Sequence record: OR427838.1 | Source: Escherichia phage fDHCT2 | Reading direction: 5' to 3' (one strand) | DNA length: 64,000 bases | In this document: positions 18,615 through 27,753 of the stretch, in pieces | Layout of the letters: each line of letters begins with the position of its first letter | Numbering within the stretch: position 1 is the first letter of the stretch | Notes under the pieces: model-generated | The model's database searches: none | The model's input: the letters and a program-made list of their open reading frames with translations, nothing else | Told to the model about the DNA's origin: nothing | Translations under genes and position numbers: made by a program

Positions 18615-19788
18615 GATCGCTCACAAAATTCATATTTTCTAAATCGTTTTCTATATCAGCGGCGCTTTGGGTATTTCCACCTAATTTAACAGCAACGTTC
18701 TTAGAGACACGAGAGTTAATAAGGTCGTTCACCGCATCGTCAACTTCTTTAATAGAATTAATTGCACCGAGCTTATACTTATTCTCGATTGCTTCACGGA
18801 ACGGAGCATGTTTAAACAGCGGTCCCCAGAACTCGACACAATCGGTAGCTTTAGCACGCCATGATTTTTCTTCTTGAACCATTTCACCTGTGGTTTCGTC
18901 AAGGAATGCACGATTATACCAACCAGCTTTAGGTTTCACAACAAAGCCAATATCAGTAGCCATTTCAAGCAATCCACTGAATGGGTCGATACCACCTTCA
19001 AAGTTCACAGTAATTGGGAACGTTGATTTCTCTTTAACAGTACGAGATTTTTCGGCCTTCAGGGTGAAGTCATAACCAGTGAGCTCGGTGCCATCTTTAA
19101 CCTGACGTTTAGAGATAAAGAATACGGTAGAAGCAGAGTACAGAATACCGGTACCGCCACCCATAATCTCTTTAGGATACATTCCACCAATTTCCATAGC
19201 CGTATGGTTAATTGCTACACAAGGGATATCCTTGATGGTCAGATAAGGTGTTACGATACGGAACAGAGATTTCAGTGACTTAGCACGGGTCATATCACCT
19301 ACAACTTTCTCGTTCAAAGCATCTTCGGTTTCTTTCTTAGAAGCGGTGTTACCGATGGAGTCGATAAAGATAATAACCTTTTCACCACGAGTAATTTCTT
19401 CTAATTGGTTGGTCATGTCAACCTTCAGTTGTTCAACTGACTGGATTGGCGTATGAACCACACGTTCCAGGTCAACACCCATTGAACGGAAATAAGATTC
19501 TGAAGCACCGAACTCAGAGTCATAGAACAAGCAAATTGCGTCTGGATATTTCTTCATATATGCTGCAACCATGGTAAGTCCAAACAATGTTTTAAAGTGT
19601 TTAGATGGAGCAGCAAAGATTGTCAAACCTGATTGTAAGCCTGCATTCAACGCACCACCCAATGCAATATTCAGCATAGGGATACGAGTAGGAACTTCGT
19701 CACGACCATTAAACAATTTGGATTTGGTCAGGTCGGCAGTCATTTTAGAAGTAGAAGCTTTAATCAAACGGGATTTTAAATCAGACAT
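18607..19788 (-). CDS. uvsX: UvsX RecA-like recombinase
   Basis: 393 aa; MSDLKSRLIKASTSK... near-identical to remembered T4 UvsX N-terminus. Confidence 0.95.
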   Translation of the reverse strand: MSDLKSRLIKASTSKMTADLTKSKLFNGRDEVPTRIPMLNIALGGALNAGLQSGLTIFAAPSKHFKTLFGLTMVAAYMKKYPDAICLFYDSEFGASESYFRSMGVDLERVVHTPIQSVEQLKVDMTNQLEEITRGEKVIIFIDSIGNTASKKETEDALNEKVVGDMTRAKSLKSLFRIVTPYLTIKDIPCVAINHTAMEIGGMYPKEIMGGGTGILYSASTVFFISKRQVKDGTELTGYDFTLKAEKSRTVKEKSTFPITVNFEGGIDPFSGLLEMATDIGFVVKPKAGWYNRAFLDETTGEMVQEEKSWRAKATDCVEFWGPLFKHAPFREAIENKYKLGAINSIKEVDDAVNDLINSRVSKNVAVKLGGNTQSAADIENDLENMNFVSDHD

Positions 19789-19840
19789 TATATTTTTCCA
19801 TAGGCATCATTATATTTTACTCACGTTTTAAGATAGGGTA

Positions 19841-19870
19841 ATTATATCACTTCACATTTACAGCGTTAAA
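19841..19870 (-). promoter_or_regulatory. possible weak promoter upstream of uvsX
   Basis: minus GTGATATAAT then TACCCTATCTTAA; -35 only CTTTAA-like. Confidence 0.3.
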
Positions 19871-20759
19871 GGACCACGTCCTCATAACTTGGCATTTCGT
19901 GCTCAGAATGGATATGGGCGCCGAAATAAATGAATTCAGCTAGACCAGGATGGAATACTAAACCTGGGTTCTCATGATAAATGATATGAGGTCTTGATTT
20001 CAGAATCTGATAATATTCAACCTTACTTGGTTTGAATTTAATAATCTCTACATCAGGACGATAGTCTTCACGCTTAAATGAATCATTCGGGTCGGTGATA
20101 TAAAGACGAGCACCTTCAGCCGCAGCTTGGTCTACAACTCTTTCGAATTGATAACACTTATCCGAAATACGGAATGGGTGGAAAATACCATCAATTTTAA
20201 TAGGCGCTAGACCTTCAGAGTAACGCTCAATTACTGCCGGATTAATTACCTTTTGGTCTACAAAAATCTTATCAGAGGACGCACCTCGTGACACCAGGAC
20301 GTCTTTCTGACATTGGTTCAAGACTGTAGTATAAATCGAACGTTCAACTGAAGACACGTCGGTATCAATAAACTCATCGATGTAATAACGAGGAACTTCA
20401 GGGTCCATTGTAATGTTAAAGTTGAATTGTACAGTCTGAGCACCATCATAACCAGTGATATCGGTTACTAATCCCGAGCAGTCATAGTATTCGATTAACG
20501 AATCAACGACAAACTCATTTTCGGACCAAAAATGTTTACGGGTCTCATAAGCATTTTCTTTATACCAAAGCGGCACGAAATTCAGTTCAGGAAATAATTC
20601 AATACATTCTTTGATATCGCTCGAATTTCTAGGATAAGCCAGATAATCACCTGGGCAAGCACGGTTTAAATGGAGTTGGAAATTACCGTCCTTAAGGACG
20701 GCATATTCACCTGTTTCGTAACTACGCATACTGAAAATAGGAACGATAAACAAACTCAT
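19866..20759 (-). CDS. hypothetical protein at the T4 bgt position (candidate transferase)
   Basis: 297 aa; no resemblance to remembered T4 beta-glucosyltransferase; function inferred from context only. Confidence 0.6.
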   Translation of the reverse strand: MSLFIVPIFSMRSYETGEYAVLKDGNFQLHLNRACPGDYLAYPRNSSDIKECIELFPELNFVPLWYKENAYETRKHFWSENEFVVDSLIEYYDCSGLVTDITGYDGAQTVQFNFNITMDPEVPRYYIDEFIDTDVSSVERSIYTTVLNQCQKDVLVSRGASSDKIFVDQKVINPAVIERYSEGLAPIKIDGIFHPFRISDKCYQFERVVDQAAAEGARLYITDPNDSFKREDYRPDVEIIKFKPSKVEYYQILKSRPHIIYHENPGLVFHPGLAEFIYFGAHIHSEHEMPSYEDVVL

Positions 20760-21454
20760 TTCAGGAATCCTCGAACGTAGTCAAAATCACGTTCAAATAC
20801 GTGTGCACTAACCATAGTATGGGAATACGTACCCAGACCAACACCACACTGTTCAGCAATAAAGGCCATCAGTTTACCCTGCAGATAGAAATCCAGCTGC
20901 ATAACGATAGCACAGTTCTGTGAACGCATATGAGTATGTGCATACAGACGTCCATCACGAATATAATATGTTACCGAATCGGTACATGGATATTCTAGGG
21001 ATTCGTCAGAATCAAGGAGGGCTTGGTCTTGTTCTTGGAGAATTTGGAACACAACTCGTCTCGAGTTAGGCTTTTCTTTAAGCTCTTTAAGTAGGGCTGG
21101 GAGTTGGGCCACAATTCGAGGTCCATAGAAAGTGTTGAAGTTTGCAGGCAATACGTCACTTTTCGGCTTATCAATGAACTTAGCAACATTAGGGTATTCC
21201 TTAAATGCTTCGGCAGCGTCAGTACCACCAGAAATCATAAATTTCCAAAAGGATTCGGCATATTCATAACTGATACGATTGATACGTGGGTCGGTGAATT
21301 TATAGGTGCTGGCATCCAGTACTTCTATAGAAGCAGAACCAATTTCATAACAACGTCCGATACGAGAATCAACTGCAAACTGTGGAGCTTCCAGGATTTC
21401 TTCGTTCATTTGTTTAAATGCATTTTCAAAACTAACAGCGGTAATGTGTTTCAT
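20756..21454 (-). CDS. 42: pyrimidine hydroxymethylase, thymidylate-synthase fold (gp42-like)
   Basis: 232 aa; ...PCTDSVTYYIRDGRLYAHTHMRSQN... aligns with T4 gp42 ...MCTNTVQYLIRD...NMRSND... Confidence 0.8.
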   Translation of the reverse strand: MKHITAVSFENAFKQMNEEILEAPQFAVDSRIGRCYEIGSASIEVLDASTYKFTDPRINRISYEYAESFWKFMISGGTDAAEAFKEYPNVAKFIDKPKSDVLPANFNTFYGPRIVAQLPALLKELKEKPNSRRVVFQILQEQDQALLDSDESLEYPCTDSVTYYIRDGRLYAHTHMRSQNCAIVMQLDFYLQGKLMAFIAEQCGVGLGTYSHTMVSAHVFERDFDYVRGFLK

Positions 21455-21987
21455 TTATTCACCTTATTTTCAATATATTCGTTCAGACGTTTTAATTCTA
21501 CCATATCAACATTAAGCAAATTATTATGGCCGTCATGATTTAAGATTTTAAACACGTTTTCAAAACATGTTTCGTATTGCTGGATAGTTAGGTTGAACTC
21601 ATCTTTGGTTAATTTAATAAGGTCATCTTCGAAGTCTTCATCTAATGGATTACGGGTTAAAATAACCTCGATAACGTTAAATTCGGATTTAAACCCTTTC
21701 CAATCTTCCAGTTCTACATAAGGGTCCATTTCACCACGAAGGAATCCTGAGTAAACAATATTACTTGGATAACCACGGTCAAGGATGTAAACGAAATTAG
21801 GGTCTAAAAACTTATACAACGTCTCGACTAAAGCCTTATCATTATCAGTTCCTAATGAAATACACTTGCCATTAATCTTTTTAGGAAAATCAATAAGGCG
21901 GTATTTCTTATTGGATAACAGATTTTTAATTAAAGTGGACTTCCCGGAATTATCTGGGCCGTCTATAACAATGATTTTTGGATTCAT
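21451..21987 (-). CDS. P-loop kinase (thymidylate-kinase-like)
   Basis: 178 aa; Walker A IVIDGPDNSGKSTL. Confidence 0.7.
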   Translation of the reverse strand: MNPKIIVIDGPDNSGKSTLIKNLLSNKKYRLIDFPKKINGKCISLGTDNDKALVETLYKFLDPNFVYILDRGYPSNIVYSGFLRGEMDPYVELEDWKGFKSEFNVIEVILTRNPLDEDFEDDLIKLTKDEFNLTIQQYETCFENVFKILNHDGHNNLLNVDMVELKRLNEYIENKVNK

Positions 21988-22382
21988 GGATGATAGGCCT
22001 TATAACTATCAAGAGTTCCTTCACGAACCAATTCTTTAAAGTGGTCTGGACGGATTGCTCGGTCATCGATGATAAAAGTATAACTCGGCTTGTGTGTAAG
22101 CAAATTGTGATATTTCAATCCAATTTTTTCAAGGTTCTTAACCAATGCAGGAACTACTTCAACCAAGATTCGACCTGGGCCACATGAAGTCATGCCACGG
22201 GCAGTGAATAATGTAATCTCGTACCCTTCATCATAAAGCTTATTAATCATGGACACCATTTCGGTGTCCGGTTTAAAGTTCTCATAATCACGGTCATGGT
22301 TCCAAATCGTGATTGTGTTATCGATATCAAAACATAAATGTGGTTTATTTTCTACTCGATGCGACATTAAATTTTCTTCCAT
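21984..22382 (-). CDS. small HAD-superfamily phosphatase
   Basis: 132 aa; motif I FDIDNTIT. Confidence 0.65.
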   Translation of the reverse strand: MEENLMSHRVENKPHLCFDIDNTITIWNHDRDYENFKPDTEMVSMINKLYDEGYEITLFTARGMTSCGPGRILVEVVPALVKNLEKIGLKYHNLLTHKPSYTFIIDDRAIRPDHFKELVREGTLDSYKAYHP

Positions 22383-24040
22383 TGTTTGTGGAGTTCAGTA
22401 GAACCTGTAGGTTTATATTTTACACCAGTTTCCTGGTCAAGCAAAACCCACTTATCAGGACAACGAGTAATAATTTGAGCCGTGATAGGGTCACGAACTT
22501 CATCGACAAATTCACCAGTAATAAGCTTACGCTTACGAGGATGCCGCTTCAGCAGCACACTCAGTTGGTACAAACCGTTATAATAAGCACCCAGAGCTTT
22601 CAGAGGGTTATTCTTAAAGTAACCTGCCAGCGCCATCCAAATAACAGCAATCCAGAGCTTGTGCTTAAATGTGCACATAGGAATATCGTCTAAAGGCATA
22701 ACCTTTTCAATATCAACGAATACACGAGTTCCATTACGAGTTAATCCACCCCATAGAGGGTCTGAGTTAAATTTGTCATAGCCATCGATAGAATAAAGCA
22801 CCTTAGCTTCATCATAAATCGCAGGGCCTTTAGAACTATTACCGAAATAACCACGTGGGTCGATGATTTTAATATCACCTTCGTCCGACAGCATAATATT
22901 ACTGTAGTGCGGGTCACCATGAATAAGTTGGTACGGTTCTTTATGTTCAGACAGAATTTCTAATGCATGGCGGAGAAGTTTTTCAGGGTCGCCTACTTTG
23001 AAATCGTTGACATGGGTAATGCCCTGTGGAGCAAAGCCTTCAATCAATCCGGCAATAGAAGCATTACGAATAAGGACCTTGTCCAATACTTCTTTCTTAA
23101 CATCGGAATACCATTGTTCATCGGACGGATTATCAATAGTTCCACCAAATGAACGTAATGCACTAATGACCTTATAAACCATGAGGACTTTAGTTTCTTT
23201 GGACATAAACCGGTAGGCATCTGCCATGGTCCGACCAAAGATACGTTCCATTTTAATGAATTCGCCTGGAGAAAAGTCTACAATGCTAGGAACGAATTCA
23301 GAATCAATAGAATTATACCAATTGATTTCTTTAGATTGAATTTCTTTACCTAAATCGTTAGTTGGTACTTTAATAGCCAGATTCTCAGTGAACTCTAATT
23401 TATTAAATTCACGGTTAATTTCAGAATCTTCATGGGCCTTAGCCAGTTTCAATTTGTCACCGACATCAACCACAAAGTCCAGCTTACGTTCAGTCAAATG
23501 GACCATCGAATCCAGGTTGTCTGCAAGGTCTTCGCCATAATTAGAACGGTCGAAACCTGTCCAATTAGCCACCTGATACAAACCAACCACACCACCGCCA
23601 GTACCAATTTCACGCAAGTACGGTTCTTCAAATGTAAAACGACAGTCGGTCCCATAGGTATAACAGTAGTCGTTATCCCACTCAACTTTATGACCTTCAG
23701 GAATAATATCACACCAGTTAAACAAGACATTATGCCCAATGATATCTTCAGCAATGCAATCGATAGCATGAGCTGAACCATTAGCAACATCAACGTTACG
23801 AATAGTGAATTTAGGCTTATCACCAGTAATCATGTTAATGGATTTGATATAGCCTTTAACGAGGTCGTTAAATTTGCTGTGAATAACCAGAATAATTTCA
23901 TCTGATTGGTTACTATACAAATCATACAAATGCTTTAATACCGTATGTTGTTTGTAGTTAACCAATACCTTCGGGATTTCGTTAGTAATTGGATACAACC
24001 GTGAGCCAAGACCCGCGCCTAAAATAACAACCTTTTTCAT
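22367..24040 (-). CDS. bifunctional sugar-1-phosphate nucleotidyltransferase / kinase
   Basis: start at MKKVVILGAGLGSRLYPIT (RBS GAGGAA); C-terminal LIHGDPHYSNIML...IIDPRGY kinase motifs. Confidence 0.8.
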   Translation of the reverse strand: MKKVVILGAGLGSRLYPITNEIPKVLVNYKQHTVLKHLYDLYSNQSDEIILVIHSKFNDLVKGYIKSINMITGDKPKFTIRNVDVANGSAHAIDCIAEDIIGHNVLFNWCDIIPEGHKVEWDNDYCYTYGTDCRFTFEEPYLREIGTGGGVVGLYQVANWTGFDRSNYGEDLADNLDSMVHLTERKLDFVVDVGDKLKLAKAHEDSEINREFNKLEFTENLAIKVPTNDLGKEIQSKEINWYNSIDSEFVPSIVDFSPGEFIKMERIFGRTMADAYRFMSKETKVLMVYKVISALRSFGGTIDNPSDEQWYSDVKKEVLDKVLIRNASIAGLIEGFAPQGITHVNDFKVGDPEKLLRHALEILSEHKEPYQLIHGDPHYSNIMLSDEGDIKIIDPRGYFGNSSKGPAIYDEAKVLYSIDGYDKFNSDPLWGGLTRNGTRVFVDIEKVMPLDDIPMCTFKHKLWIAVIWMALAGYFKNNPLKALGAYYNGLYQLSVLLKRHPRKRKLITGEFVDEVRDPITAQIITRCPDKWVLLDQETGVKYKPTGSTELHKQWKKI

Positions 24041-24100
24041 TATCTGTTCCTCAAGTGAATGTAGGTACATTATACACTATTTTTAATAAATTGGTATTGC

Positions 24101-24601
24101 TTAAATCTTATCTTTACCGATTTCAATACACTGTTCTATTGCCGCCGGTACTTTGGTCTTGAGCTTATCGATTTGTTTCTTATAATCACGAGCTTTACCG
24201 AAGCTCTCGGTTTCGAGCATTTCGTAATAACGAGCCTCGTGGATGGAAATCTGTAGATTGATATGGTTTACGCACATCGCATACAGTTTCTGCTTTTTGT
24301 ACAAATCATCTTGACGCTTCATTTCTGCCTGGTGTTTGGCTAGTACCGCTTCACGCTTAGACTCTTGTTCACGTTGGAATTCGATTTCCCTTTGAGCATA
24401 TTTTGCACAGTTATTACCGCATTGATTATTAGCTCGGGTATACACAAGTCCGGAACCAGCACGGAATTTCATTTCGCCATCGAATTGTTTCTGTTCAGCT
24501 GCGATACGAGCTTTACCAACTTCATCAGCCGAAACTGCATCGCCATATTGGACCGCGCAACCTGATAGGAGCATACTCATTGCGATAATTAACTTTTTCA
24601 T
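24101..24601 (-). CDS. lipoprotein
   Basis: 166 aa; MKKLIIAMSMLLSGC lipobox. Confidence 0.6.
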   Translation of the reverse strand: MKKLIIAMSMLLSGCAVQYGDAVSADEVGKARIAAEQKQFDGEMKFRAGSGLVYTRANNQCGNNCAKYAQREIEFQREQESKREAVLAKHQAEMKRQDDLYKKQKLYAMCVNHINLQISIHEARYYEMLETESFGKARDYKKQIDKLKTKVPAAIEQCIEIGKDKI

Positions 24602-24608
24602 AATATCC

Positions 24609-24746
24609 TCAATTAAAACAGTTATACTTAATTTGTGCTATAAGAATAATCCATCCAATGATGAGTGTCGGAATCATTGGTGGAATTGCCACTGCCCAAT
24701 AAACGGTAAAGGCAGCCATTATAAGAAATAAAATAATTATCTTCAT
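24609..24746 (-). CDS. small membrane peptide (45 aa, hand-called)
   Basis: MKIIILFLIMAAFTVYWAVAIPPMIPTLIIGWIILIAQ...; ATG overlaps imm stop. Confidence 0.4.
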   Translation of the reverse strand: MKIIILFLIMAAFTVYWAVAIPPMIPTLIIGWIILIAQIKYNCFN

Positions 24747-24979
24747 TGTTTAACGATAATGATTTGTGCGTTTGATTTACGTTCAGCGACGATAGCCCAG
24801 ATTAAAGCCACTACCCAACCAATCATCGTCCACCCTAACAGGAGATTAAGGAAGAAAATTCCTACATTACTACGAGTGCCTCGCAGAAGGGCTAAAATCC
24901 ATGGTAAAAAGTAACCGATGAACATAATAACCAGAGAACCAAATCCTAAAACACCAGCACTAACGATTAAAGCTTCCAT
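24743..24979 (-). CDS. imm: superinfection immunity protein Imm
   Basis: 78 aa, two TM helices, ...LLLGWTMIGWVVALIWA...; T4 position before gene 43. Confidence 0.7.
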   Translation of the reverse strand: MEALIVSAGVLGFGSLVIMFIGYFLPWILALLRGTRSNVGIFFLNLLLGWTMIGWVVALIWAIVAERKSNAQIIIVKQ

Positions 24980-25009
24980 TGTAATTTCCTCATGTAGTTG
25001 ATAGGAAGG

Positions 25010-25039
25010 ATACTACCACGTTCCTTGTGGTATGTAAAC
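25010..25039 (-). promoter_or_regulatory. T4-type early promoter (imm)
   Basis: minus GTTTAC (25034-25039), 18 nt, TAGTAT, CTATCAAC. Confidence 0.6.
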
Positions 25040-25041
25040 AC

Positions 25042-27753
25042 TTAAAAGTCGAACATATCAAATAATGTTGCTTTTTTCTCGTAGTCGATTTTAGCAGACT
25101 CAGTAAAACCAGTCAGAGGCTTGATAAAGGTCTTTTGGAACAGTACGTTGTAGTCCATCCAACGGAGGACTTGGTCACGAATCTGAATCGGAAGTTCAAT
25201 ACCTGACGGCCACGCCATACAAGCTTCACCAAAAGGGTTGCCTTCTTTAAGCGGCAGCACATATACCTTTTCACCATCAACGATACGAGGCATGGTCAAA
25301 TCACCTGCAGAAGCACGCATGTAAGCTAAGCAACCTTTGATGTGATACGGACATTTAGAACCAGGGAAACCGCCTTCATTATATTTCTCGATGTTGTTAG
25401 CACTGGATACTGCAGCAATGCTTACATAGTTTAGTTCGTTAAATTCCTTATTAAACTGTTTGAAATACTCTTGCAAAGAGGCCTCGCCTTCTTGAAGCAT
25501 ACGACGGATACATTCTTTCAGTGCTTTCTGAACTGCTTTAGGTGTACTTGATTTCTGGGTTTCGAGGCCCATGATTTTCAAGTGTGGTTCGGCATAACGA
25601 GTACCTTCCATGTCCCAAACGTTCAGTGCATAACGTTTCTTGCCTGTCCAGAATCCACCAAGACCTTTAGAACCAAGTGGAGGACCAGCGATAGCTTCTC
25701 GGTCCATGAACATCAAGTGCTGTTTATTGTTCATGTATTCGCACATCTCACGGAAGCCTGCATCAATAGCCGGTTCCATACGTTCACGTGCAAATTTATC
25801 TAAGAAATCAACCCAGTGGTTAGTATCACGGAATTTATCTTCGCCTACTTTATTGATGATTGCGTCAGCCTTAACATAAATGGAGTCAGTATCACCATAG
25901 AGCACGAACTTCTGGTTTTCAGTCTTGCACACACCATTCAGATATTCGTTAACCTTACGTTCAATCCATTGGAGGGCCATTTGACCAAACAATGTGATTG
26001 CAGTCGCGTTCCTGAGGTCATAGTAACGGAACCATACGTTACCAAGTGCACCATAAAGGGAGTTGATAAGCAACTTACGGTTAATCTGAGCAGTCATACC
26101 TGCGACTTCAGTACGTTCGGCTTTGAACAACATTTCTTTTAAAGAAGATGCTGACAATTTTTTAATCTGAGCTTTGATTTCGTCAGAGAAGTCGAAACGA
26201 TAATCGATATCCAGTGGGCTATCAACAGACGGATTAGGATTTTCTAATGCTTCCTTAATTAACTCACCATTACGTTGAGCTGCAAGCATATAACCTTTAT
26301 GTTCTTTACGCTGTAAGAACACCTTCGTGATTTCTGTAGGAATCACGCCATCACGGTCTTTATAGTACATCATGCCGTTAGGAGAGCAACTGTAGGTGTC
26401 GCTAGGACGCGGAGCAGTTCCGGCAATATATTCATGTATCGGTGCGTTAGCGAATGTCCCTGCGATGGTCTCTGGGCTTATATTCACTTGTCGAATGATA
26501 CTCGGGTACAGAGATGTAAGGTCGAAACTCATTACATATTTGTACGCGTTAGGAATAGGTTCCTTAACGAAAGCACCTGGATAAGGTTGAACCGCATGCG
26601 ATTTGGCCTGAGGAATAACTTTACCCTGTTCTTTAAGGCTATTAAAGATAATAGCGTCCCAAGTCTTAATTGGACTGAACACCGACTGAATCTGCATCTT
26701 GGCATAGTAACCCATGTCCAGACTAAGAAGAATGAACTGGCGTTTCATATCAATCTGCACAACACGATATACGTCGATAATGTTATAGGAAATATATCGT
26801 TGGTGGTTCGTCTCACGTAACTTGGAGATAGGACCATCATATTTCAACTTACCTACTTTCAATTCATATTCAGAAACATAATCCAGAGAATAAGAAGGCT
26901 GGTTGGTAAAGCTGAATTTTTTATAAAGGTCGATATAATCCAGAACAGAGATACCGAACAGTGTAATAATTTCACGAACACCGTACATATTCTCGATAAC
27001 TTTAACACGAGTCTTACGATGCGGGCTTAATCGCTTAGCAGTGTTCTCACCAAACAGATTTTTCAGACGGTTATAAACGTATGGCACGTCAAATGATTCA
27101 ACGTTCCATCCAGTCAAAATCACAGGAGTTTTCTGTTGCCAGAAATTCAGATACTCAAGCATCATTTCTTCTTCAGAATTAAACGGAAGATAAACGATTT
27201 TGTCAATGATTTCTTGTGGAACTTCGTCACCACCTTCGTCTTGGAGTTTCTCAGCGATTTTAATCGACCACTCTTCGACCGTACCATAAGGTGAAACTAA
27301 AAGGTCAAATACATAGAATTTATCATCAATCGAGTCGTAGTGAGTAATGGCATCGATAGGATGTTTAGCCTGAGCAGGTTCAGGGAATCCATCAGGGGAT
27401 GTTACCTCGATGTCGAAGTTAGCAATACGAATCTTGGAAGAATCATACTTGATTTCTTTACGATAGGTATCAGACAAATAGGCTAATTTATAGTCGTCCA
27501 TACCAAGGGCTTCGAGACCCATATCGTCCATGCGCTTCATCCACTGAGAAGCATCGCGCATTGAATTGAATTCTTTCTTAACACAGCCCTTACCGTAGAT
27601 GTCAATATATTTTACGGCTTGCTCTGGGTTAGCATGCATAAACATTGTAGGCTTGTATGGAACTTCACGACTACGTTCGTTACCATTTTTATCGATGTAA
27701 CGTTCGAGAATATTATCACCGATTTGTTCGACTGTCAAATAGAATTCTTGCAT
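25042..27753 (-). CDS. 43: DNA polymerase gp43
   Basis: start at MQEFYLTVEQ (27753, RBS AAGGAAA); collinear with remembered T4 gp43 to ...LFDMFDF. Confidence 0.97.
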   Translation of the reverse strand: MQEFYLTVEQIGDNILERYIDKNGNERSREVPYKPTMFMHANPEQAVKYIDIYGKGCVKKEFNSMRDASQWMKRMDDMGLEALGMDDYKLAYLSDTYRKEIKYDSSKIRIANFDIEVTSPDGFPEPAQAKHPIDAITHYDSIDDKFYVFDLLVSPYGTVEEWSIKIAEKLQDEGGDEVPQEIIDKIVYLPFNSEEEMMLEYLNFWQQKTPVILTGWNVESFDVPYVYNRLKNLFGENTAKRLSPHRKTRVKVIENMYGVREIITLFGISVLDYIDLYKKFSFTNQPSYSLDYVSEYELKVGKLKYDGPISKLRETNHQRYISYNIIDVYRVVQIDMKRQFILLSLDMGYYAKMQIQSVFSPIKTWDAIIFNSLKEQGKVIPQAKSHAVQPYPGAFVKEPIPNAYKYVMSFDLTSLYPSIIRQVNISPETIAGTFANAPIHEYIAGTAPRPSDTYSCSPNGMMYYKDRDGVIPTEITKVFLQRKEHKGYMLAAQRNGELIKEALENPNPSVDSPLDIDYRFDFSDEIKAQIKKLSASSLKEMLFKAERTEVAGMTAQINRKLLINSLYGALGNVWFRYYDLRNATAITLFGQMALQWIERKVNEYLNGVCKTENQKFVLYGDTDSIYVKADAIINKVGEDKFRDTNHWVDFLDKFARERMEPAIDAGFREMCEYMNNKQHLMFMDREAIAGPPLGSKGLGGFWTGKKRYALNVWDMEGTRYAEPHLKIMGLETQKSSTPKAVQKALKECIRRMLQEGEASLQEYFKQFNKEFNELNYVSIAAVSSANNIEKYNEGGFPGSKCPYHIKGCLAYMRASAGDLTMPRIVDGEKVYVLPLKEGNPFGEACMAWPSGIELPIQIRDQVLRWMDYNVLFQKTFIKPLTGFTESAKIDYEKKATLFDMFDF

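Follow-up and report, generated by a model that had tools for sequence, protein, structure and literature searches.

A predicted AfhE-type kinase-pyrophosphorylase fusion in an apparently reduced cytosine arabinosylation module of a Dhakavirus

The DNA of phage RB69 contains arabinosylated 5-hydroxycytosine, and UDP-arabinofuranose (UDP-Araf) is the sugar donor in vitro (PMC13326640). In the same source, RB69 gp48 is a flavin-dependent 5-hydroxy-dCMP synthase, with activity shown experimentally; gp47:46 is given the arabinosyltransferase role; and gp51 is equated with the phosphatase AfhF. RB69 gp53:52 and IME08 gp43, the latter named as a full-length homolog, were earlier proposed as UDP-arabinose synthesis enzymes by Thomas et al. 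(2018; PMC6024577), who found no T4 homologs of the module. Lee et al. (2026; PMC13326640) equate gp53:52 with HY126 AfhE, for which they cite He et al. [quoted passage not shown] The role of this family was therefore hypothesised in 2018 and by 2026, according to that secondary account, had been characterised in a related phage by biochemical means.

The window analysed here is a 64,000-nt stretch of Escherichia phage fDHCT2 (OR427838.1). It comes from a Dhakavirus (Tevenvirinae), about 96% identical to JS98/JS10, in agreement with its recognition as a T4-like phage from the sequence alone. The module of interest lies between gene 43 and uvsX, the same genomic slot as in RB69, where the fusion gene is likewise accompanied by a HAD phosphatase, a 5-hydroxy-dCMP (5hodCMP) synthase, a glycosyltransferase (GT), and a P-loop kinase. 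Its features are:

19866..20759, minus strand: predicted DNA arabinosyltransferase 1 (65-70% identity to RB69 gp47 and gp46)
20756..21454, minus strand: thymidylate-synthase homolog, predicted 5-hydroxy-dCMP synthase (79% identity to RB69 gp48)
21451..21987, minus strand: P-loop nucleotide kinase, thymidylate-kinase-like (38% identity to RB69 gp45; P-loop GPDNSGKS)
21984..22382, minus strand: HAD-type phosphatase, AfhF-like (62% identity to RB69 gp51; motifs FDIDNT, FTAR, HKP, IIDD)
22367..24040, minus strand: AfhE-like bifunctional gene, predicted sugar-phosphate 1-kinase plus NDP-sugar pyrophosphorylase (557 aa plus stop; from the ORF, Pfam, homology and an AF2 model)
22370..22540, minus strand: C-terminal tail of the fusion protein, about 57 aa, small beta hairpins (secondary structure; pLDDT 81-92)
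22541..23413, minus strand: APH/choline-kinase-fold kinase domain, approximately residues 210-500 (K224, E238, HGDxxxxN 374-381, IDPRG 393-397)
23426..24040, minus strand: N-terminal nucleotidyltransferase domain, approximately residues 1-205 (GAGLGSRL 8-15, PK 23-24, WCD 109-111, DVGD 192-195, K198)
24041..24100, minus strand: intergenic region upstream of the fusion gene (GAGGAA ribosome-binding site and TGTATAAT element, read from sequence)

The fusion ORF, on the minus strand, has possible starts at 24070 and 24040 and a stop at 22367-22369, and its 3' end is overlapped by the HAD-phosphatase gene. ATG 24040 is most likely the true start, because a GAGGAA Shine-Dalgarno sequence lies 7 nt upstream, because the resulting 557-aa frame is also the one annotated for JS98 gp042, and because the upstream ATG 24070 falls within the TGTATAAT extended -10-like element at 24076-24069, a candidate promoter. 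The longer 567-aa ORF was rejected on these grounds: its ATG sits in the -10-like TATAAT box, while ATG 24040 has a proper Shine-Dalgarno sequence and agrees with the annotations. The sequence-only reading had the same limits, 22367-24040, with no strand given. Positions 19700-25100 were also scanned for generic sigma-70 promoters and terminators; sites were no more frequent there than in shuffled sequence, and no operon structure is therefore claimed from the scan.

At the protein level, the combination of kinase and pyrophosphorylase first recognised from motifs is borne out by Pfam, with both domains above the curated cut-offs (NTP_transferase, 33.9 bits vs. 21.2; APH, 25.3 bits vs. 23.2). 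All three motifs originally noted are present: the pyrophosphorylase signature G-x-G-x-R-L as G-L-G-S-R-L at residues 10-15, H-G-D...N as H-G-D-P-H-Y-S-N at 374-381, and D-x-x-G as D-P-R-G at 394-397. The catalytic residues of both domains (G10, R14, K24, D111, D192, D195 and K198; K224, E238, H374, D376, N381 and D394) are invariant over 58 homologs, to ~30% identity, as are D313/E317/K321/R325, K413 and K481 in the kinase domain and many non-catalytic residues family-wide. Homologs from Straboviridae share the C-terminal tail, and distant ones, at 87-89% query coverage, lack it. An AF2 model (pLDDT 93.3) recovers both folds, with MurU (4y7t), LicC (1jyk/1jyl), LicA, and APH (3ham) as structural neighbours; MurU, LicC, and APH are also reported for RB69 gp53:52 (PMC13326640). 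When the fusion sequence was searched against the PDB, no AfhE-like structure came up, and the top match, LicC, is marginal (E=1e-3).

The fusion protein is 99% identical to IME08 gp43. Identity is at least 98% within Dhakavirus, 80% to Klebsiella Marfa-like homologs, 71% to those of Providencia, 48% to the Serratia phage 92A1 homolog, and 42% to RB69 gp53:52, the last over 100% coverage (E 1e-106 to 1e-124). It has the architecture of the AfhE family, a single polypeptide of ~545-573 aa with an N-terminal nucleotidyltransferase and a C-terminal APH-fold kinase (557 aa here, 561 in RB69), as well as full-length homology, intact catalytic residues in both domains, and a location in a cytosine-arabinosylation cluster. 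By these comparisons the gene is the apparent full-length Dhakavirus ortholog of AfhE and RB69 gp53:52, although of a lineage divergent from that of RB69. The fusion is a correct observation but not a new one, because the family had already been described as UDP-arabinose makers for cytosine decoration in phage DNA; T4 itself has no such enzyme, in line with the sequence-only reading and with the lack of T4 homologs of the module in Thomas et al. (PMC6024577).

The gene had also been suggested, from its neighbourhood, to make the donor for DNA modification, and here orthology and phyletic distribution agree. AfhE-like genes and the cytosine-modifying ThyA homolog co-occur almost perfectly across ~350 phage genomes; counts of AfhE-like vs. 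5hodCMP-synthase-like genes in the phage collection are 176/176 for Escherichia, 57/57 for Acinetobacter, and 25/26 for Klebsiella. Lee et al. count the Dhakaviruses among the cluster carriers, in their arabinosylation synteny group (PMC13326640).

The neighbour itself needs a different name. Initially taken for a hydroxymethylase, the ThyA homolog is closest to the 5-hydroxy-dCMP synthase RB69 gp48, and a T4 gp42-type dCMP hydroxymethylase was rejected on the difference in match (E=6e-6 to T4 gp42, 1b49, vs. 3e-126 to PDB 9iqu/9iqc). It has Cys157 (in PC), a Glu at the equivalent of ThyA L143, and an Asp at the equivalent of N177. RB69 gp48 and PDB 9iqu, the latter taken here as the enzyme of HY126, differ at 3 of 231 positions, and from this near-identity HY126 would itself appear to be RB69-like. 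Neither the HAD-like protein (weak HAD matches only) nor the GT has a significant Pfam match, so that these two assignments rest on RB69 homology and, for the former, on the visible HAD motifs, of which all four are present.

We consider it very probable that the fusion gene is the Dhakavirus AfhE ortholog within a phage UDP-D-arabinofuranose pathway, providing the sugar donor for 5-hydroxycytosine glycosylation. In the proposed route, the C-terminal APH-fold kinase would phosphorylate D-arabinose 5-phosphate (Ara5P), probably from host KdsD/GutQ, at the anomeric C1, yielding arabinose 1,5-bisphosphate; the HAD phosphatase (21984-22382) would strip the 5-phosphate to leave Araf-1-P; the N-terminal nucleotidyltransferase domain would convert this with UTP to UDP-Araf; and the GT (19866-20759) would move the arabinose onto 5-hydroxycytosine in DNA, a base presumably derived from 5-hydroxy-dCMP, the predicted product of the ThyA homolog (20756-21454). 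The fusion gene would be the committed sugar-activation step. The present analysis itself establishes the folds of the domains, the conservation of their catalytic residues, orthology, synteny, and co-occurrence across phages; the substrates, step order, and nucleotide specificity are carried over from published work on RB69, DLP3, and HY126.

The order of the first two steps is presented in two ways in PMC13326640. In the text, which cites HY126 AfhE/AfhF biochemistry, Araf5P is the kinase substrate and Araf1,5P its product, and the phosphatase follows. By this secondary account the salvage of a free sugar in two steps, as in the sequence-only reading, would not hold, the reported route having a C1 kinase on Ara5P and a separate HAD phosphatase before nucleotidyl transfer. 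Table 1 of the same paper gives the alternative order, phosphatase first and then kinase on free arabinose: RB69 gp51 “dephosphorylates Araf5p to Ara,” and the C-terminal domain “Phosphorylates Ara to Araf1p.” The HAD phosphatase would then free D-arabinose from Ara5P for phosphorylation at C1 and conversion to UDP-Ara, a genuine salvage in two steps, by kinase and then pyrophosphorylase, as with AmgK/MurU or NahK-type anomeric kinases. This order also fits the kinase domain's structural neighbours, whose substrates are unphosphorylated (choline, glucosamine, maltose, aminoglycosides). It is nonetheless unlikely, given the sequence of steps in the text and a set of invariant basic residues (K321, R325, R396, K413, K481) that could suit a phosphosugar substrate.

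The kinase-first route is identical in logic to the GmhA/HldE/GmhB pathway to ADP-heptose, in which a SIS isomerase is followed by a bifunctional C1 kinase producing a bisphosphate, a HAD enzyme removing the distal phosphate, and the second domain adding the nucleotide. HldE, however, joins a ribokinase-fold kinase to a cytidylyltransferase-fold adenylyltransferase, and is not among the top structural matches of the fusion protein; the resemblance is convergent, not homologous. AmgK/MurU (anomeric MurNAc kinase and MurNAc-1-P uridylyltransferase) and LicA/LicC (choline kinase and CTP:phosphocholine cytidylyltransferase) share the fold pairing, an APH/choline-kinase-fold kinase and then a small GT-A-like nucleotidyltransferase, and the logic of phosphorylation followed by nucleotidylation, but they are separate proteins, acting on unphosphorylated substrates in cell-wall or teichoic-acid chemistry, with no phosphatase step between. 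FKP, the L-fucokinase/GDP-fucose pyrophosphorylase, also unites in one polypeptide a sugar kinase and an NDP-sugar pyrophosphorylase that has the same GT-A-like fold, but it salvages a free sugar, and its kinase has the GHMP fold where that of the phage protein matches APH/choline kinase. An FKP-type enzyme was rejected for this reason, and membership in the HldE or LicA/LicC groups on domain or fold grounds. GmhB is a structural match for the HAD partner (PMC13326640).

Relative to RB69, the Dhakavirus module appears reduced. By tblastn, neither the window nor the whole JS98 genome has homologs of RB69 gp55 (the arabinose-5-phosphate isomerase, with a SIS domain), the U32-like gp50, gp49, or the second arabinosyltransferase gp3, and the GT at 19866..20759 is the only arabinosyltransferase homolog found in either. 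Without a phage SIS isomerase, there is no complete RB69-type pathway from Ru5P to UDP-Araf, and the module is therefore not a complete copy of that of RB69. Among phage records, 276 contain the isomerase vs. 367 with the AfhE-like gene. E. coli produces Ara5P via KdsD/GutQ for Kdo synthesis, which would make a phage isomerase dispensable. These host enzymes also come up in PMC6024577. A modest new point is thus that the reduced module implies host-supplied Ara5P, probably from KdsD/GutQ since the phage isomerase is absent, and, with the U32-like gene and second GT also lacking, that Dhakavirus DNA is probably mono-arabinosylated. The apparent dependence of the lineage on its host for Ara5P is testable.

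The missing genes could also be read as a change of substrate. If the Dhakavirus enzyme used another sugar or nucleotide than the Mosigvirus one, the DNA would contain a non-arabinose glycosyl-5-hydroxycytosine; identity to RB69 gp53:52 is only 42%, the isomerase, gp50, gp49, and gp3 are all missing, and no chemical analysis of Dhakavirus DNA, nor any Dhakavirus enzymology, was found in the literature searched. The HAD partner and GT are, however, close to the RB69 arabinose enzymes (62 and 65-70% identity), catalytic and many non-catalytic residues of the fusion protein do not vary across the family, host Ara5P would make a phage isomerase dispensable, and Lee et al. group the Dhakaviruses with the arabinosylating phages (PMC13326640), all of which make such a switch very unlikely. 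In a broader form, Dhakavirus and Marfavirus-type phages would have a stripped-down pathway in which AfhE has been turned to some other host sugar phosphate or nucleotide, generating an undescribed glycosyl-5-hydroxycytosine, a proposal we regard as distinctly unlikely; more modestly, the DNA might be strictly mono-arabinosylated and wholly dependent on host KdsD/GutQ.

Phage DNA with arabinosylated 5-hydroxycytosine resists restriction enzymes as well as some CRISPR and other defence systems, and also becomes a target of type IV systems. The modification therefore matters for the choice and engineering of therapeutic coliphages, for which many Dhakaviruses are candidates. In most records the fusion gene and those around it go by “hypothetical,” “GlmU,” “phosphoheptose isomerase,” or “thymidylate synthase,” and they could be re-annotated.

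Such labels bear on one further interpretation, that the protein is a LicA/LicC- or GlmU-like enzyme for host cell-surface, capsule, or LPS chemistry, unrelated to DNA. GenBank entries for some homologs read “GlmU,” “capsule biosynthesis protein,” or “capsular polysaccharide biosynthesis protein”; the structural neighbours include LicC and LicA; and the four-domain fusion P0068 adjoins large glycosyltransferase genes, probably for glycan synthesis. The best homologs, though, are phage DNA-modification genes rather than capsule or LPS enzymes. The phage gene is embedded in a replication and nucleotide-metabolism region, AfhE-like genes accompany the 5hodCMP synthase from genome to genome, and GlmU was rejected because a kinase fold occupies the C-terminal half and there is no left-handed beta-helix (LbetaH) acetyltransferase domain. 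A surface role is accordingly extremely improbable. Metagenomic four-domain proteins with the order HAD-SIS-NTP_transferase-APH were counted as fusion evidence, and a SIS gene adjoins distant homologs of the fusion gene in a jumbo-phage-like contig and in phage PAU.

The fusion gene (22367-24040, minus strand) is one continuous ORF in the ORF list of the window. The mechanical ORF list sets its upstream limit at ATG 24070, which was rejected as a start since it falls within a TGTATAAT extended -10-like element (24069-24076, minus strand), 29 nt 5' of the start codon. No -35 or MotA box is recognisable with this element, and a generic promoter scan left it unflagged. ATG 24040 has GAGGAA upstream at the correct spacing, as read from the sequence, and the same 557-aa frame is annotated for JS98 gp042; the coordinates of the sequence-only reading are therefore exact. 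Its central observation, a kinase-pyrophosphorylase fusion, is confirmed: the motifs it quoted are present in this single ORF (G-L-G-S-R-L, residues 10-15; H-G-D-x4-N, 374-381; D-P-R-G, 394-397), and both Pfam domains score above cut-off (NTP_transferase, residues 13-110, 33.9 bits vs. 21.2; APH, residues 356-427, 25.3 bits vs. 23.2). Nucleotidyltransferase residues G10, R14, K24, D111, D192, D195, and K198 and kinase residues K224, E238, H374, D376, N381, and D394 are invariant among 58 homologs, down to ~30% identity. The C-terminal ~57 residues form small hairpins, a tail that the most distant homologs do not have.

The region has 95-96% DNA identity to Dhakavirus genomes such as JS98, JS10, EcWhh-1, and IME281, Tevenvirinae of E. 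coli. The genes from DNA polymerase to uvsX are all on the minus strand; the RB69 module lying between gene 43 and uvsX has no T4 counterpart (Thomas et al., 2018, PMC6024577). The gene order is:

Gene 43, minus strand: DNA polymerase
imm, minus strand
24612-24719, minus strand: 36-aa hydrophobic ORF, 56% identical to RB69 gp54
24101-24601, minus strand: 166-aa ORF with lipoprotein-like signal MKKLIIAMSMLLSGC, equivalent to JS98 orf43
22367-24040, minus strand: fusion gene
21984-22382, minus strand: HAD-like gene (132 aa) that overlaps the fusion gene at the latter's 3' end
21451-21987, minus strand: P-loop kinase, thymidylate-kinase-like, RB69 gp45 homolog (38% identity)
20756-21454, minus strand: thymidylate-synthase (ThyA) homolog, 232 aa
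19866-20759, minus strand: 297-aa ORF, predicted arabinosyltransferase
uvsX, minus strand

In both genera (those of fDHCT2 and RB69), the 36-aa ORF is conserved immediately 5' of the region with the AfhE-like gene; the P-loop kinase gene is within the module, but placed differently than RB69 gp45. In RB69, phosphorylation of 5-hydroxy-dCMP (5hodCMP) has been shown for the gp1-type dNMP kinase.

The feature is already known. In RB69, ORF053c and ORF052c proved to be parts of a single gene, ORF53_52c, whose product was proposed to help make UDP-arabinose, and IME08 gp43 was named as its full-length homolog (Thomas et al., 2018, PMC6024577); the fDHCT2 protein shares 99% identity with its counterparts in JS98, IME08, and KIT01. 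By 2026 the family had an assigned function: RB69 DNA contains arabinofuranosylated 5-hydroxycytosine, not arabinosyl-hmC; UDP-D-arabinofuranose (UDP-Araf) serves as donor in vitro; the ThyA homolog gp48 acts as a flavin-associated 5hodCMP synthase; gp51 is equated with AfhF, a Mg-dependent phosphatase, and gp52:53 with AfhE of phage HY126, which is cited there from He et al. as a bifunctional D-arabinose-5-phosphate 1-kinase and UDP-arabinose pyrophosphorylase; and carriers of the syntenic cluster include Dhakaviruses (Lee et al., 2026, PMC13326640).

With RB69 proteins as queries, local tblastn on the window gave, besides the identities listed above for gp54 and gp45, 44% (gp53), 41% (gp52), 62% (gp51, HAD), 79% (gp48), 70% (gp47), and 64% (gp46), supporting orthology of the RB69 module as a whole. 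Beyond its closest relatives, the identity of the fusion protein falls to 80% with Klebsiella Marfa-type proteins and 71% with a Providencia phage protein; full-length identity is 42-48% with its homologs in Mosigvirus (RB69), Serratia 92A1, Acinetobacter, Enterobacter, and Shewanella Thanatos phages. There are homologs in 367 phage records, and close homologs of the ThyA-like gene in 345; counts by genus (ThyA-like/fusion) almost mirror each other (Escherichia 176/176, Acinetobacter 57/57, Shigella 15/15, Klebsiella 26/25, Serratia 9/9).

The ThyA-like neighbor had been taken for a hydroxymethylase, which does not hold: it matches T4 dCMP hydroxymethylase (1b49) at only E = 6e-6, vs. 3e-126 for PDB 9iqu, 9iqc, and 9ir2. 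When these chains are compared with RB69 gp48, 3 of 231 positions differ; they probably represent the enzyme of HY126 to which Lee et al. refer, which the PDB titles do not say. The window protein retains the catalytic Cys (PC at 156-157) and has substitutions equivalent to L143E and N177D, as described for 5hodCMP synthases (PMC13326640).

In the best-supported scheme, the APH-fold domain would phosphorylate C1 of D-arabinose 5-phosphate (Ara5P), the adjacent HAD phosphatase would take off the 5-phosphate, the N-terminal domain would convert Araf-1-P and UTP to UDP-Araf, and the glycosyltransferase (19866-20759) would arabinosylate 5-hydroxycytosine in DNA. The logic parallels the established GmhA/HldE/GmhB ADP-heptose pathway, although the folds are unrelated; AmgK/MurU and LicA/LicC have the same fold pairing as the fusion protein. 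The kinase-then-phosphatase order follows a secondary citation in PMC13326640, Table 1 of which still gives the opposite order, with the phosphatase first and the kinase acting on free arabinose; we consider this improbable. The two-step salvage scheme proposed from the sequence alone does not hold, since the reported route has a phosphatase step between kinase and nucleotidyl transfer. The broader proposal, donor synthesis for DNA modification, is right and is supported by module orthology, invariant catalytic residues, co-occurrence with the ThyA-like gene, and gene fusions.

These fusions are in metagenomic proteins P0068, P0074, and P0092 (922-946 aa; locus L009, 8001-10775), single chains with HAD, SIS, NTP_transferase, and APH-like kinase domains, which by domain content would put a complete ribulose-5-P to NDP-arabinose route in one protein. 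A SIS-domain gene is immediately 5' of a 32%-identical AfhE-like gene in locus L008 (7297-11359; jumbo-phage-like contig GCA_013565635.1, 315 kb), and in Sphingomonas phage PAU isomerase gp212 is next to the homolog gp215. Such Rosetta-stone fusions and SIS adjacency support the predicted pathway role. The P0068 gene, possibly from a giant virus, adjoins a gene for a multi-glycosyltransferase of 1164 aa, and this setting suggests that the target is a glycan rather than DNA. In L008, a Fapy-DNA glycosylase gene lies ~800 bp downstream.

The Dhakavirus lineage appears to depend on its host for Ara5P. Neither the window nor the complete JS98 genome has a homolog of RB69 gp55 (arabinose-5-P isomerase), gp50 (U32-like), gp49, or gp3 (second arabinosyltransferase). 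In the phage collection the isomerase is in fewer records (276) than the fusion gene, with Klebsiella not among the genera listed for it; the Dhakavirus/Marfavirus-type lineage thus has a reduced module. Most simply, the host would supply Ara5P through its Kdo-pathway isomerases, KdsD/GutQ, and the DNA, given a single glycosyltransferase, would be mono-arabinosylated, by analogy to Thanatos, for which one such enzyme and mono-arabinosylated DNA are reported (PMC13326640); the searchable literature yielded no chemical analysis of Dhakavirus DNA. The slot of gp55 is filled by the 166-aa ORF, for which Pfam gave no informative match, and that of gp3, between rIIA.1 and gene 39, has two ORFs (453-803, 116 aa, and 850-1029, 59 aa; both minus strand).

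Public records do not annotate the module consistently. Names given to the fusion gene include GlmU, UDP-glucose dehydrogenase, capsule biosynthesis protein, capsid and scaffold protein, and mannose-1-P guanyltransferase; its HAD partner appears as "phosphoheptose isomerase", and the 5hodCMP synthase as thymidylate synthase or dCMP hydroxymethylase.
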